IMG/VR virus record: IMGVR_UViG_2698536369_000018
Direction: 5' to 3' (one strand)
Source of the DNA: a virus
Taxonomy: Duplodnaviria; Heunggongvirae; Uroviricota; Caudoviricetes
Length of the DNA: 5,179 nucleotides
Shown here: in pieces, positions 579 through 5,075 of the stretch
Position numbering within the stretch: position 1 is the first letter of the stretch
Layout of the letters: each line of letters starts with the position of its first letter
Made by a program: the position numbers and the translations under genes
Notes under the pieces: model-generated
The model's input: the letters and a program-made list of their open reading frames with translations, nothing else
Databases searched by the model: none
Told to the model about the DNA's origin: nothing

Positions 579-600
579 TTATGTACACCCTTATGTACAC
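579..600 (+). promoter_or_regulatory. Two direct copies of TTATGTACAC (12-bp period), each containing the palindrome TGTACA; candidate operator
   Basis: TTATGTACACCC / TTATGTACACGT at 579-590 and 591-602, flanked by T-runs at 556-562, 571-576 and 602-608, immediately upstream of the ORF at 631. No protein can be assigned to it from sequence. Confidence 0.25.
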
Positions 601-630: not shown

Positions 631-891
631 GTGGATGATCACGGATGGCCTGATATCTACAGCCGCCTTAAAAAGCTGGACCCGACAAGCATTACTGCGT
701 ATCGGGTTCGTTCGCTCTTTCTACTCGTGGCAGATGAGTTTATTGGTGTGATTTTATCGGGCGAGGGTATTGTATCAGGCATCCCCTTTTCTATGCAGAT
801 TTGCATAGTTCCGAATGGTGGCGTTATGGAAGCCTCCCATATCAGCATCATGCCCACCAGCGTGAAGTATTTTTTTATTTCGCGGGTGTAA
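631..891 (+). CDS. Hypothetical small protein (86 aa), weakly supported
   Basis: ATG-initiated ORF from the six-frame track. No convincing Shine-Dalgarno (GGTGG directly abuts the ATG) and no recognisable motifs; codon usage is plausible. It could be a chance ORF in an intergenic region. Confidence 0.25.
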   Translation: MDDHGWPDIYSRLKKLDPTSITAYRVRSLFLLVADEFIGVILSGEGIVSGIPFSMQICIVPNGGVMEASHISIMPTSVKYFFISRV

Positions 892-932
892 AAATTTGAC
901 TAGGCGGGCGGTCCCATAAGCAATGGATTGTA

Positions 933-946
933 GGGATTTCGATCCC
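933..946. other. Short perfect hairpin GGGAT-TTCG-ATCCC
   Basis: 5-bp stem with a TTCG tetraloop, followed by a C-run. It does not fold into a canonical tRNA T-arm (5-bp stem with 7-nt loop) on either strand. Confidence 0.3.
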
Positions 947-967
947 CCCTCCTGAATGCAATTTTTC

Positions 968-979
968 GTATATATATAC
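968..979. repeat. 12-bp perfect palindrome GTATATATATAC containing (TA)5
   Basis: Read directly; it lies 8 bp upstream of the 9-mer repeat block. Confidence 0.6.
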
Positions 980-987
980 AAAACAGT

Positions 988-1013
988 GCGGGTTATGCGG
1001 GTTACCGGGTTAT
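988..1013. repeat. Three tandem direct repeats of a 9-bp motif GCGGGTTAY
   Basis: GCGGGTTAT (988-996), GCGGGTTAC (997-1005) and CGGGTTAT (1006-1013), read directly. Confidence 0.8.
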
Positions 1014-1088
1014 CTTAGCGTGCTAACTATTTTTTGTTCTTTAGTATCAATATGTTGAAAAATGCACTGTTCATTATTCAAGCATCGC

Positions 1089-1151
1089 ATAACCCGCAAA
1101 ACATCCCAAATAACCCGCAAACGCCCCAAAATAACCCGCAAACACATTGCT
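1089..1151. repeat. Three tandem 21-bp repeats, each beginning ATAACCCGCAAA (iteron-like)
   Basis: ATAACCCGCAAAACATCCCAA (1089-1109), ATAACCCGCAAACGCCCCAAA (1110-1130), ATAACCCGCAAACACATTGCT (1131-1151). The period is exactly 21 bp (two helical turns). The conserved core ATAACCCGC is the reverse complement of the GCGGGTTAT repeats at 988-1013, so the two blocks form an inverted pair across a 75-bp AT-rich spacer. Confidence 0.8.
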
Positions 1152-1751
1152 GAAAGCTGGGGTGGATAGTTCCACTGGTGCCACAGAACGGCTGAATACG
1201 GTAACTGTTGCTGGTGGTCTGTCCTGTTGTCGTTCCAGTCTCATCAAATTGAGAGGCAAGACAAAGTGCATTTTTGCACTATAGCCAAAGCCTCATAAAA
1301 CAGAGTTACCCCCACAGGTTGGCAAACCATTACCCAACGCAATTAAGTGCGTCAGAATCGATTACAGCGCGTTCCTGTGGCACATTGTTGCCGTTCTCAA
1401 CAGTGAAAGGAGAGCGTAAAAAGCGCATATCTATTACTGTTGAGGGGTGTAGCGGCATATATCGCGCATATCCACGCCGTTAATCCCGATACCGTCACTG
1501 CGCATTGAGATCCACCAGAAGATTAAGATAGTTTTACCTGAAATTATCCAAATAATTGTTTTAACTGATTAATTTTTCGAATATCTATTGTTAGGGAATA
1601 AATCATCAGATACACCATAAAACGACATCTTTCAGGGTGTAGAAGATGCAAAGCCGGTACTGAAGAAAAGACAAAGAATATGAATGGCTGGCCACACGAT
1701 GGAAGGATTGTCCATTGAAGGATCAATCCCCATGGTATAAGTATTAATAAA

Positions 1752-1796
1752 ACCGCGCAGCGGGCTTTTTTATCTGCGGTTTCCCGCCCGGGCGGC
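1752..1796. other. GC-rich hairpin cluster with T-runs on both strands; possible secondary or bidirectional terminator
   Basis: CCGCGCAG (1753-1760) pairs with CTGCGG (1774-1779) with one bulge. A small CCGC-GCA-GCGG hairpin (1753-1763) is followed by T6 on the plus strand (1766-1771), and TTTTATT follows on the minus strand. A 12-bp perfect palindrome CCGCCCGGGCGG lies at 1784-1795. Confidence 0.4.
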
Positions 1797-1809
1797 GGTG
1801 GCATTCGTT

Positions 1810-1836
1810 AAAAACAAGGCCGCGAAAGCGGCCTTG
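1810..1836 (-). terminator. Rho-independent terminator of the minus-strand operon
   Basis: On the minus strand: CAAGGCCGC-TTTC-GCGGCCTTG (9-bp perfect GC-rich stem, 4-nt loop) immediately followed by TTTTTAA. It begins 8 nt after the stop codon of the 104-aa ORF. Confidence 0.8.
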
Positions 1837-1843
1837 TGACATG

Positions 1844-2158
1844 TCACGATAGTTCCGTTTTGTTGAATTCAATTATATCAAGGTCAGAACTTTCGTAATC
1901 CTTACCGAATAAAGCAAAACATATCGCGTCAAGTTCTCTCTTATGTTTGGACGCCCGATCATAATTACCACCCCAACAGCAAATGAATCCACCAAGTACT
2001 GCTGATTCAAAAAGTAATGATGCTGCATCAATATGTCTGAACCAGGAGTCTATAAGTAAAGCAGAGAGTGATATTAATGTTCCCCACCCGCCAATCCTTC
2101 TCCATTTCTCAGCTTCATATTTAAGAGAAGCAATATATTCAATTTTATCTCTCGTCAT
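1844..2158 (-). CDS. Small putative membrane protein (104 aa), AT-rich and rare-codon-rich; last gene of the operon
   Basis: Its ATG overlaps the stop of the upstream 918-aa ORF (minus strand reads TGATG, sharing one base). Two hydrophobic segments (IGGWGTLISLSALLIDSWF and AASLLFESAVLGGFICCWGG). Codon usage is atypical for its neighbour: 4 AGA, 1 AGG and 4 ATA codons in 104. No family recognised. Confidence 0.6.
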   Translation of the reverse strand: MTRDKIEYIASLKYEAEKWRRIGGWGTLISLSALLIDSWFRHIDAASLLFESAVLGGFICCWGGNYDRASKHKRELDAICFALFGKDYESSDLDIIEFNKTELS

Positions 2159-4914
2159 CAGTTCCCCACCGCCTTTCCAAAATCCGGTGCTCTACGTGGC
2201 GCAATAGCACCCGGTTCCCACCAACTCGTTATGTCGAACTCCCGTTGCGCGCGGTCCCTTACTCGATCATTGTAACCAGGGTTTGCCATCTCCTGAAGTT
2301 GTTGCAATATCAGGTGATTGGTTATCGCTTTCGCATACCACAGGTTTGCGAATGGGGTGATCATGCGGGCTGTTTTCAGTGCATCGGCACCGAATGATGT
2401 TTCTTCACCCTGTATAGCCTTCTGTGGGTTAGTAATCAGTAATTTTGTTAACTGCTCTGCAAAGCTCAACACAGGGCCACCCATAGTGGCACCGATGCTG
2501 GAGCCATATTGCGTATGGTCCTGGAAAATAAAATCACCGTAGATACCGAACGAACCACCTTTCAGTAGAGCCTGAACCCATGTGGTTGGTTTTGTCATAT
2601 CCAGCGGGTCATTACCATTTAACAAACTGTTCATCTGGATCGCAAACATACCAGCAAGAGTTGTTCCCCCGATATATGAGGCCAGAAATTTAATGGCCGG
2701 AACGGTGTCCAAATCCCGTGTTCTGTTAACAAGTTGCCGAAATCCAGCAAATGGGGTTGTTTTGAAGAGCATGAAGCTCTTCATTAACTCGCCAGCATCA
2801 TCACGGGCATATGTATCAATACCCGTAGCGGTGGTCACAGCATTGGTCATCTCACCGTGCGTAATTCCCAGCAATTTCTGGGCTGCTTCAGCGCGTGCAT
2901 TACGAATCATGCGCATGATGGTCTGCTCAGCCTCAGCGTCGAATGCTTCTTTCATCCGTTTCTGGCGTTCTGGAGGGAGATCACCAAGGGCTGCCAGTGC
3001 CTTTTCACTCCCGGCACGAATCCGGGCAATACGGTCTGCCATAATGTCGGCGATTACGTTATCGGGCACAGCGTAAATCGCGTCTGGCGTCATCCCCATA
3101 TGCCCGGCTGTAGTCATCGGCCTGAGTTCTGCCGCTGCCATGATGGCCCAGTCCTCATTGCTCCATCCCTTGTTAGCCAGAATGGTTTTATCGGTTCCTT
3201 TTATATCGTCCAGCGTCTTAAATTTTCTGGTCAGCTCGCCAATGTTTTTGTACATCAGGAGACCAAACGACGCTTTGTTTGCGCGGTCCATAGCGATCAG
3301 CCCGGACCACTTCAGTGTCTTCTCTGCGAACCAGCCAGTTATGCCGCGAGACAAGTCAAACCCACCCATTTTCGAAACCACAGCAGCATGTGAATCCACC
3401 AGCAGACCGAGTTCAGCATTCGCCTTTTTGGCATCTCCACTAAACAGGTTTTTGATAGTGTTAACGGAAAGCCGCATTCCACCACGGGTAAAGCCCAGCG
3501 CCTGCGCATTTGCCCGCATAATGGCCTGGTCGCTGGTTGCTGTCAGTACGCTGGTGCCAAGCATGGCGCTGGTCATCAGGTTACGCAGACCACCAACTGC
3601 TGAAGAGAACACACTCGATGAAGCGACACCATTTAGGCCAGCCATTGAGTTGAACATACGGGCAACTAATTTGGCCTCATCCTCCATTTCTTTTTTGCGT
3701 TTCCCGCCTGTTACTGCGCGCTTATAGATGCGATCCAGTACCAGGGAAAAGTTTCTTTCGGCGTCCGGACCAAAGGCTTTAACGACGCCCAAATCCCTGG
3801 ATGATGATTGCAGGTGCGACATCATCACCCCCACCAGCGGCTGCTGAGTGTATCGCTCCATATAGGCGAAGTGTGACTGCGCATCCTTGAACGCCATCAC
3901 CCTGTGCTGAGAACCACGGCTCTTTATTCCTCCGGCTCCCATAAATGTACCAGGCTCAATTTTGTTTGCCCCATCAGTGGCCTTCGTTTCAAAGATCGCT
4001 TCCAGTGCCTGACGGTACTCAACGTCATTCATAATGCTGCCATCAGGATTAACGTAATTGCTGCGATCCTGCGTGTTGTAAACGTCATCAACCCATGCCT
4101 GGCGGGCAAACTCAATCGGTGGCTGGCGACCTGAAAGACGTGCTGTAGCTTGTTCTGTCACTGGTAACGATGCCAGCCATTCTTCGCGCCCGGCATTGCG
4201 AATAAGGTCAGCATCATCCACATATGGCATATTCCAGTCGTCTCGCTGGCCTATGTCAAAGCCGTTGTCGTTCATCTCATGGCGAACACGGCTTGTTACA
4301 TCCTTCCAAATCTGTGCAATTTTCTTCGCCAGTGGATTCCCGGTATCTTCGCCGTAAATCTCTTTAAGGATCTGGAGTTGTGCAGACTTTGCCGCCTGCC
4401 TGTCGAATACACTCCGAAACCGCTGCTCTCCAAGCGCCCTGCTCTGCTCGAAGAATTTGCGGACGTCATCACCTGCTTTTAGAAGTTCAGCACTGAGCTG
4501 ACGGGACCAGTCCTGATATGCCCCAATTGCAAGCTCTTCAGCAGAAGTAACGGAGATATCAGCTTTGTCTCTCGATCGTCGGCCAGCAAAAATAAACTGC
4601 TGCAAATTAACAGGTGTCTGCTGATCAGGCGGGATGTTAGCATCGAGAGTGTCAATAATTTTACTGATGGCGATCGCATTGTGGGCAACACGCTGTCTTT
4701 TCTTGTACACATCATGAACCACACGCTGGCGTACCAGTTCTGCTGCATCCATGTATGTTTGAGCATCAGGAATACCACTTTTTCCTTCTTTTGCATTCTT
4801 TCTGTGCACATGCTGCACAGCTTCTTTGATACGATCTTCAATATTTTTCAGCTCATCAGCCTTTGGCTGGCGACCAAGTGTCTGCGCAATAGCTTCAACA
4901 CATGCCTGTTTCAT
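2158..4914 (-). CDS. Large hypothetical protein (918 aa from the ATG at 4914; the track's 925-aa version starts at a GTG at 4935); function unknown
   Basis: Longest ORF in the window with codon usage typical of enterobacterial genes. The ATG at 4912-4914 is preceded by GAGGAA 6 nt upstream and overlaps the TAA of the upstream 53-aa ORF (TAATG). I see no Walker A/B, HNH, DDE or other catalytic signature by eye. It has a K/E/R-rich helical N-terminal third and a central Gly/Ala/Ser/Thr/Met-rich stretch (NSMAGLNGVASSSVFSSAVGGLRNLMTSAMLGTSVLTATSDQAIMRANAQALGF...). Confidence 0.85.
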   Translation of the reverse strand: MKQACVEAIAQTLGRQPKADELKNIEDRIKEAVQHVHRKNAKEGKSGIPDAQTYMDAAELVRQRVVHDVYKKRQRVAHNAIAISKIIDTLDANIPPDQQTPVNLQQFIFAGRRSRDKADISVTSAEELAIGAYQDWSRQLSAELLKAGDDVRKFFEQSRALGEQRFRSVFDRQAAKSAQLQILKEIYGEDTGNPLAKKIAQIWKDVTSRVRHEMNDNGFDIGQRDDWNMPYVDDADLIRNAGREEWLASLPVTEQATARLSGRQPPIEFARQAWVDDVYNTQDRSNYVNPDGSIMNDVEYRQALEAIFETKATDGANKIEPGTFMGAGGIKSRGSQHRVMAFKDAQSHFAYMERYTQQPLVGVMMSHLQSSSRDLGVVKAFGPDAERNFSLVLDRIYKRAVTGGKRKKEMEDEAKLVARMFNSMAGLNGVASSSVFSSAVGGLRNLMTSAMLGTSVLTATSDQAIMRANAQALGFTRGGMRLSVNTIKNLFSGDAKKANAELGLLVDSHAAVVSKMGGFDLSRGITGWFAEKTLKWSGLIAMDRANKASFGLLMYKNIGELTRKFKTLDDIKGTDKTILANKGWSNEDWAIMAAAELRPMTTAGHMGMTPDAIYAVPDNVIADIMADRIARIRAGSEKALAALGDLPPERQKRMKEAFDAEAEQTIMRMIRNARAEAAQKLLGITHGEMTNAVTTATGIDTYARDDAGELMKSFMLFKTTPFAGFRQLVNRTRDLDTVPAIKFLASYIGGTTLAGMFAIQMNSLLNGNDPLDMTKPTTWVQALLKGGSFGIYGDFIFQDHTQYGSSIGATMGGPVLSFAEQLTKLLITNPQKAIQGEETSFGADALKTARMITPFANLWYAKAITNHLILQQLQEMANPGYNDRVRDRAQREFDITSWWEPGAIAPRRAPDFGKAVGN

Positions 4915-5075
4915 TATGGGTTCCTCAAGAAGCACGCTGCCGCTACAGAATAAACCTTCGATTCGTTCTGGACTGTCTTAATCTGTTCATCCAACTCAGC
5001 CAGGAGATCAGAAAGTTTTGTCGGGTTTCCGGTTTCCGGGTGAGCTATAGTCAGCTCAGGATTGGCAACAGCCAT
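4914..5075 (-). CDS. Small hypothetical protein (53 aa) translationally coupled to the large ORF
   Basis: ATG at 5073-5075 with a G-rich stretch (GGGGCGG) about 8 nt upstream; translation MAVANPELTIAHPETGNPTKLSDLLAELDEQIKTVQNESKVYSVAAACFLRNP. Its TAA (4914-4916) overlaps the ATG of the 918-aa ORF. It is below the size cutoff of the supplied ORF track, so this is my own reading. Confidence 0.45.
   Translation of the reverse strand: MAVANPELTIAHPETGNPTKLSDLLAELDEQIKTVQNESKVYSVAAACFLRNP

Follow-up and report, generated by a model that had tools for sequence, protein, structure and literature searches.

What do two opposed sets of short repeats do at the edge of an integrated element, and which protein reads them? 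The question was raised by a stretch of 5,179 nucleotides (hereafter the window), filed as a Caudoviricetes record (IMG/VR IMGVR_UViG_2698536369_000018). In it, an initial annotation made from the letters alone had marked an inverted pair of repeat blocks around an AT-rich spacer and had offered three readings: iterons of a replication origin, recombinase or excisionase arm sites at an attachment site, or a multi-site operator around a promoter. We compared the window with related loci, denoted here by L numbers, and arrived at a reading that we hold with a probability of roughly 0.6. Namely, the repeat block, termed module A, would be one of two origin-type modules of a phage-inducible chromosomal island (PICI) in the 3' end of yicC, and its repeats would be iterons for the C-terminal domain (CTD) of the island's DUF927 Rep protein.

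The repeat block and its island

The argument draws on the following features of the window:

496-520: island/chromosome junction; similarity to K-12 (yicC-dinD intergenic region) stops near 508, and a degenerate copy of the yicC 3' end (att core) lies here
580-600, plus strand: two copies of TATGTACAC, 12 bp apart, in the int-distal arm
871-952, plus strand: block homologous to the annotated cos region of the Stx2e phage phiP27 (82 bp, 84.5% identity, E=1e-12)
959-984: element CAATTTTTCG(TA)nTACAAAAC with the GTATATATATAC palindrome (968-979), just outside the tight set
987-1013, minus strand: tight iteron set of module A, reading TGCGGGTTA, TGCGGGTTA, CCGGGTTAT at 9-bp spacing, the third copy with one mismatch
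1014-1088: AT-rich spacer of 75 bp, 68% A+T against 53% for the whole window
1015-1026: palindrome TTAGCGTGCTAA, inside the spacer
1045-1057: IHF consensus TATCAATATGTTG in mid-spacer, the sole WATCAANNNNTTR match in the whole window
1089-1142, plus strand: phased iteron set of module A, 3 x ATAACCCGCAAA, spaced by exactly 21 bp, that is, two helical turns

Positions 1 to about 500 of the window are E. coli dinD and its promoter, including the K-12 yicC-dinD intergenic region; a LexA box of that promoter, CTGTATTTATATACAG, lies at 325-342, in chromosomal context just outside the island. Beyond about position 508 the window is part of a ~19-kb island that 45 complete E. coli genomes share at 97-99% identity. 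To map the junction, we set the window and the homologous locus L001 (41 kb) against both K-12 (L002) and the int-proximal junction. The window is 98.9% identical to L001 and 99.4% identical to L010, which is the same island in another strain, and in L001/L010 the island spans from a tyrosine integrase gene next to yicC to the left part of the window. Its gene order is int, HTH, Rha, GIY-YIG, BRO, Icd-like, DUF4222, DUF927, SSB, ProQ/FinO, PerC, three large genes and a 104-codon gene. The annotation of L001 and L010 includes int at one end, a specific att site, AlpA/HTH, pri/rep with an ori, a length of about 10-20 kb and no full phage set. By this gene content the island is of PICI type, with the backbone of Gram-negative PICIs and of capsid-forming PICIs (cf-PICIs); it occupies the 3' end of yicC, and the window holds dinD together with the island's integrase-distal end.

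Where this island has the three large genes, its cf-PICI relatives L004, L008, L012 and L016 have genes for capsid, protease, portal, HNH, TerS and TerL. As an observation on this cargo, the 925-aa ORF of the window (2158-4935, minus strand) shares 88.6% identity, from end to end, with a structural protein of the virion of the Salmonella podophage epsilon15. Together with two upstream genes (686 and 843 aa), it matches PHROGs 684, 1145 and 992, annotated as virion/head protein and transglycosylase; besides 2158-4935, these epsilon15-like genes are placed at window 1844-2158 (minus strand) and L001 24315-28906. Pfam and PADLOC gave no matches for this trio, and a defence system as cargo was ruled out on that ground. 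According to the epsilon15 and PHROGs matches, the PICI backbone bears an epsilon15-like internal virion/ejection-type trio where cf-PICIs have capsid and terminase genes, and the island may be a satellite of epsilon15-like phages, or a recombinant. Additionally, L008, L012 and L018 are PICIs or cf-PICIs that are inserted in, and split, terL, the large-terminase gene, of resident prophages of lambdoid or Gifsy-like type. The ~700 bp between module A and the 104-codon gene (window 1150-1843) contain neither a convincing ORF nor an Rfam match.

The repeat and motif search of the window confirmed that opposed repeat sets (987-1013 and 1089-1142) flank a 75-bp AT-rich spacer. Exact ATAACCCGCAAA starts at 1089, 1110 and 1131, with start-to-start distances of 21 + 21, so the 21-bp phasing seen initially is exact and places all three phased copies on one helix face. 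On the opposite strand TGCGGGTTA was found at 987 and 996, and only these two of the three left-hand 9-mers first described are intact: the third, at 1005-1013, reads CCGGGTTA(T), one base off the family consensus GCGGGTTA. This degeneration (G>C) is confined to the window, the copy being intact in all relatives, and L011 has lost one tight copy. Both palindromes reported at the outset are present; the TTAGC-GT-GCTAA palindrome is perfect only in the window's lineage and in Plesiomonas, most relatives reading TTCGCGTGCTAA. In the alignments, the CAATTTTTCG(TA)nTACAAAAC element is invariant in every module A regardless of the iteron flavour (see below). It was seen in the far (integrase-distal) or Rep-proximal modules of L001, L003-L006, L008-L013 and L015, with a diverged analogue in L016, and is a candidate for an extra unwinding element. 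The spacer itself (1014-1088) is the presumed melting and bending region; its IHF consensus is kept in most relatives, as read by eye from the alignment, and the motif search found no DnaA box in module A.

The repeats are concentrated and conserved well beyond their surroundings. The exact 8-mer TAACCCGC has 12 copies in L001 against 1.44 expected, a number reached in 0 of 100 shuffles, and 11 of the 12 are grouped in two clusters. In seven related far modules the tight cores are invariant apart from the window's own G>C and the copy lost in L011. Over module A, 1 of 48 scored columns varies in the iteron cores, this one being that G>C, against 42 of 108 elsewhere; a Fisher p of about 1e-8 was obtained from 0/48 vs 42/108, with the third tight core framed at 1006-1013, where the right frame (1005-1012) gives 1/48. 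Across relatives the cores of the phased set are invariant and its 9-bp linkers vary, and the left half of the spacer is conserved across islands while the right half is variable. The block is carried by about 250 of 5,426 complete E. coli genomes, and a megablast search of phages gave no match. It occurs at several chromosomal sites, always inside islands of the PICI family, and is therefore no generic dispersed repeat. An Rfam scan of the whole window returned only chance-level matches, which leaves no RNA explanation for the block, and a promoter and terminator scan found nothing inside it.

A probable partner for the repeats among the island's proteins

A second cluster of the motif, module B, lies directly 3' of the DUF927 rep gene of the island, within the 210 bp that separate rep from ssb (L001 30994-31116). 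It consists of four copies of the 8-mer (three of them 21 bp apart), an AT-rich spacer of ~45 bp and two adjacent copies in opposite orientation, and is thus a mirror image of module A. The distance from module A to rep is 10.6 kb, which puts rep outside the window. The encoded Rep matches Pfam DUF927 (E=1.7e-46), the solved SaPI Rep 8tch (E=2e-14) and the SCCmec helicase Cch 5dgk; PHROGs annotates it as a DNA primase. The initial annotation had stated that no adjacent gene product explains the repeats. This is correct for the window, and the distant DUF927 Rep appears to be the product that does. Looking beyond the window for an initiator gene, as had been advised, was rewarded with this helicase gene and its own motif cluster; a second copy of the motif at the other, integrase end of the island was also sought and is absent.

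We surveyed 14 islands, several of them related by descent and several loci read by eye. Among the DUF927 Reps the helicase core is nearly invariant, and the last ~110 residues fall into types that are paired with the iteron, of which there are four flavours: TAACCCGC, TAACCCAC, CTGTCCCA and TGAACCACG. Flavour TAACCCGC is paired with CTD type 1, whose members are 95% identical; this pair was seen in L001/L010 at yicC, L003 at tRNA-Pro, L004 at yifB, L012 in a prophage terL, and L006. Flavour CTGTCCCA, found in the far and proximal modules of L005 and L013, goes with a CTD that is 42% identical next to a helicase core that is 96.5% identical. Flavour TAACCCAC accompanies a 68%-identical CTD in L015 (an EDL933-type fragment), and occurs also in the far and proximal modules of the Plesiomonas cf-PICI L016 and in Salmonella L018. 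The fourth flavour, TGAACCACG, belongs to Klebsiella L017, with a Rep that is 65% identical; the co-variation with aligned CTDs covers the other three flavours. In every DUF927 island with a far module (L001, L010, L003, L004, L012, L005, L013 and L016), the far flavour equals the proximal one. Separately, CAGAATCGATTACAGCGCGTTC(C)TGTGGCA, at about 1354-1384 of the window, is conserved in L005 and L013 as well, despite their different iteron flavour.

Judged from this co-variation, it is probably the CTD of the island's DUF927 Rep that recognises the iterons. The AlphaFold (AF2) model of Rep has a pLDDT of 51 overall and below 50 in the CTD, and a search of the CTD profile against the PDB found no relative. 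Other candidate partners were rejected. The integrases of L003 and L005 are 88% identical and use the same tRNA-Pro att site, and the iterons differ; those of L001 and L003 are just 27% identical, and the iterons are the same. Groupings of the DUF4222 protein depart from iteron flavour, the L005 and L009 proteins being nearly alike beside differing iterons. The N-terminal domain of Rep fares no better, since L005 and L006 are alike in it and differ in iterons, and since it is also fused to three initiator families. The distribution of the motif, the homology of Rep, the co-variation of the motif with the Rep CTD and its independence from the integrase are all observed.

The N-terminal domain deserves a remark of its own. 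Its ~140 aa, 42-50% identical, are fused to three engines, a DUF927 helicase, a RepA-family helicase and a primase-family protein (L001 32848-33267, L008 25541-25960 and L009 24699-25109), and AF2 gives it an alpha/beta fold with a pLDDT of 60-86 in that part only. A full-length DUF927 Rep, 66% identical, was also found in the Klebsiella phage P12620-1 (PQ569648.1, 106.5 kb) at 98639-100738, which places this type of initiator also on a large phage or phage-plasmid.

These results bear directly on the reading of the repeats as integrase or excisionase arm-type sites at att, or as an array of transcription-factor operators. The block does lie within about 0.5 kb of the island end, and its phased direct repeats had been the argument for arm sites in the initial annotation. 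However, the iteron motif is missing from the integrase end, where TATGTACAC is found instead. This separate motif is paired at both island ends (the other end being L001 39508-39570, with the motif at 39510-39561), with all five exact copies in 41 kb lying within about 100 bp of the ends, and presumably represents the integrase arm-type sites. Iteron flavour is uncorrelated with the type of integrase or the DUF4222 protein, and neither a promoter consensus nor a downstream gene is positioned for control by the block, which speaks against the operator. Both variants are extremely improbable. With one cluster adjoining rep, and with the motif following the Rep CTD and not the integrase, the origin-iteron proposal of the initial annotation holds and its att-arm proposal fails.

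Two modules, a cos-like neighbour and mismatched initiators

Modules A and B come in two arrangements. They are contiguous 3' of rep, with the phased sets facing each other, in L006, L015, L017 and L018, and accessory or packaging genes spanning 8-10.6 kb separate them, with A integrase-distal, in L001/L010, L003, L004, L012, L013 and the Plesiomonas island L016; L005 shows both arrangements, and L003 retains a decayed proximal remnant. Recurring across many islands, the split arrangement is old and no accident of one strain. The distance of 10.6 kb between module A and rep counts against an origin, given that the published PICI origin sits immediately 3' of rep (PMC6092414, PMC9371898). Rep might therefore bind the repeats of module A without initiating there, the module being a distant cis partner: a looping enhancer such as P4 crr, or a negative copy-control/handcuffing locus such as P1 incA and F incC. 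Paired clusters of one iteron kilobases apart are annotated in P4 (ori 9086-9809, crr 4291-4590); module A lies 480-640 bp from the att junction, and P4 crr is found 200-500 bp off the attP core, on its int-distal side. In another PICI, EcCICFT073, the Rep-proximal segment alone supports plasmid replication (PMC6092414). Yet module A has the complete PICI-origin set of opposed iterons, AT-rich spacer, IHF site and TA palindrome, is contiguous with module B in L006, L015, L017 and L018, and has no feature that marks it as the lesser module. We regard a purely auxiliary role as possible but doubtful.

The nearest neighbour of module A is the block related to the cos region of phiP27. It contains a cosN-like 10-mer, TAGGCGGGCG, at 901-910, aligned with the 10-nt cos of phiP27, GGGGCGGGCG, and shares with the phiP27 cos the near-unchanged stretch ATTTCGCGGGTGTAAAAATTTGAC-N3-GCGGGCGGTCCC. 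The homology ends before the repeats, and phiP27 is without TAACCCGC repeats. In E. coli the far module A always stands beside such a phiP27-type cos-like block. An assignment of 901-910 (GGCGGGCGG) as a lambda cosN was rejected, the known lambda-type cos of PICIs lying elsewhere, upstream of rpp/DUF1441 (L009 19829-19840; PMC9026076). The real relative of 901-910 is the phiP27 cos. The cf-PICI L004 has a second, more diverged cos-like sequence at the canonical site upstream of terS. We also observed that many E. coli PICIs keep the cos-like block at their int-distal end, L009 with its extra lambda-type cos next to rpp among them, and that L004 carries, at 20496-20550 just inside module A, five GTCAC-containing repeats (tgtcactgtgtgtcactggttgtcactctccgtcacggtatgtcacc) with a period of about 10-11 bp, which are absent from the window.

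Such a neighbour suggests that the repeats could be packaging signals, namely cosB/cosQ-like sites for the terminase small subunit, an HNH protein or an Rpp-like protein acting at the adjoining cos. The cos homologue is only 50-240 bp away, inverted sites around an IHF bend also make up lambda cosB (PMC9026076), and the E. coli cf-PICIs examined (L004, L008 and L012) all have TAACCCGC, whatever their Rep. The details fit poorly: phiP27 has the end of the HNH gene beside its cos and no such repeats, the repeats are found not on the terS side but on the HNH side, the last to be packaged, and L004 and L012 combine identical TerS with divergent cos-like blocks. Moreover, the same repeats stand 3' of rep with no cos nearby in L006, L015, L017 and L018, and in islands devoid of packaging genes (L005 and L013 vs L003) their flavour switches together with the Rep CTD. 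A packaging role for the repeats is thus very unlikely.

Three islands, L008, L009 and L011, carry an intact or near-intact TAACCCGC module A beside a non-DUF927 initiator with other proximal iterons. L008 has a RepA-type helicase with CCCCAC iterons, and a tblastn search of this island found no Rep-CTD homologue. The initiator of L009 is of the primase family, with GTCTACC proximal iterons, as is that of L011 (tRNA-Ile/nfeF site), whose proximal origin (27760-28000) uses the P4 type I octamer TGTTCACC/GGTGAACA in >10 copies. By these motifs, module A should be unable to serve the resident initiator in any of the three. The far block is near-identical between L008 and L012, a DUF927 island at the same att site, and between L009 and L003, which fits recent swaps of the rep cassette, and in all three islands the rep-origin cassette was probably swapped recently. 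The N-terminal residues shared by the three initiator families go with a modular rep-origin cassette. These islands show that module A is dispensable for some of its carriers; in them it may be used in trans, or may merely be linked to cos.

Module A might then be a functionless relic, hitch-hiking with a selected phiP27-type cos about 50 bp away and moved together with it by recombination. The mismatched initiators are what a relic would produce, and the constant company of the cos-like block at the far position in E. coli, the tight iteron lost in L011 and the mutated third tight iteron of the window agree with it. We nevertheless consider a relic unlikely. In DUF927 islands the far flavour always fits the resident Rep, at 7 loci in 6 independent islands and for three flavours, and this holds even in the Plesiomonas island, whose Rep is 67% identical; the cores are invariant though the linkers and half of the spacer have diverged, and the exact 21-bp phasing has been retained.

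A further, rather speculative proposal, which we rate as improbable on present sequence comparisons, joins the two modules with the cos. The P27-type cos plus module A would be a portable origin-plus-packaging cassette that moves between unrelated satellites. In L008, L009 and L011 it would be kept because it allows these islands to be replicated in trans by a co-resident island's DUF927 Rep and packaged by HK97/P27-like helpers, and in DUF927 islands the split A...B would form an obligatory looped pair like P4 ori/crr. If true, it would mean satellites parasitising other satellites.

Proposed mechanism and known systems

In our preferred reading of module A as an origin-type module, Rep hexamers would assemble, after induction and excision, on both opposed iteron sets via the C-terminal domain. 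IHF would bend the spacer between the sets, the AT-rich DNA, perhaps with the TA palindrome too, would melt, and the Rep helicase would load itself without DnaA. The split of A and B, with A beside cos at the integrase-distal end, leads to two alternatives: the modules may be two origins, or an origin and a distant cis-acting partner as in P4 ori/crr. Binding, melting and firing, and how A and B share the work, are inferred by analogy with the SaPI and PICI origins.

As widespread satellites, PICIs and cf-PICIs mobilise genes for virulence and defence, and their origin has been described as a single iteron block just 3' of rep. In the large DUF927-Rep lineage of E. coli, Klebsiella, Salmonella and Plesiomonas we find instead a two-module origin, as it appears, whose modules can be split by 8-10.6 kb and whose distal module adjoins a helper-type cos. 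The determinant of specificity maps, by comparison of sequences, to the last ~110 residues of Rep, with four apparent natural iteron/CTD pairs, a ready-made system for how self-loading helicases read DNA. The arrangement raises questions about dual origins and cross-talk among satellites, and aids the annotation of island boundaries. In the PICI literature, of which our search had incomplete coverage, neither an origin-like module far from rep nor its association with a P27-type cos turned up, and a literature search for the repeat motif returned primers only.

Arrays of initiator sites outside a minimal origin are familiar from iteron plasmids (P1 incC/incA, F incB/incC, R6K gamma with alpha/beta), whose origins also contain IHF sites. 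Their initiators are RepA-type winged-helix proteins that recruit DnaB through DnaA. Module A resembles these plasmids in its auxiliary iteron array and IHF site, and differs from them in that the initiator is itself a helicase and that there is no DnaA box. The phiP27 cos, of HK97-like, HNH-dependent packaging, has its likeness in the adjoining 871-952 block, whereas the repeats themselves are not part of it.

P4 (NC_001609) comes closer. It is likewise an integrative satellite in which the octamer bound by the initiator forms two clusters separated by several kb: one directly follows the primase-helicase gene on its 3' side, and one lies some hundreds of bp off the att core, on its int-distal side. 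In the P4 system both clusters are required in cis. However, in P4 crr alone is both gene- and att-proximal, whereas two separate clusters take these places here, and the P4 alpha protein has no detectable similarity to Rep (BLASTP best E 0.11). The P4 iteron, TGTTCACC, is unlike TAACCCGC, although it does occur in the proximal origin of the relative L011. Module A may thus resemble P4 ori/crr in its working, and appears to be no member of the P4 family.

The closest counterpart is the PICI/SaPI origin (Ubeda et al.; Fillol-Salom et al. 2018, PMC6092414; Qiao et al. 2022, PMC9371898). SaPI Rep reads iterons by a C-terminal winged helix, and in the origin an AT-rich region separates iterons that run in opposite directions (PMC9371898). 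Module A has the same opposed sets of short iterons around an AT-rich region (here 3 + 3 around 75 bp), an island-encoded, self-loading helicase initiator that matches SaPI Rep 8tch by sequence, an iteron specificity that tracks the C-terminal domain (here by co-variation) and no DnaA boxes. Unlike that origin, it has iterons of 8-12 bp with strict 21-bp phasing, where SaPIs have penta- or hexanucleotides, and it lies 10.6 kb from rep, integrase-distal and by a cos-like site, with a mirror duplicate (B) in the canonical place. The position of the PICI/SaPI origin is occupied by module B, and by module A itself in L006, L015, L017 and L018. By its layout and its putative initiator, the block therefore appears to belong with the PICI/SaPI origins, and its distal position and its link to cos would be the new part.
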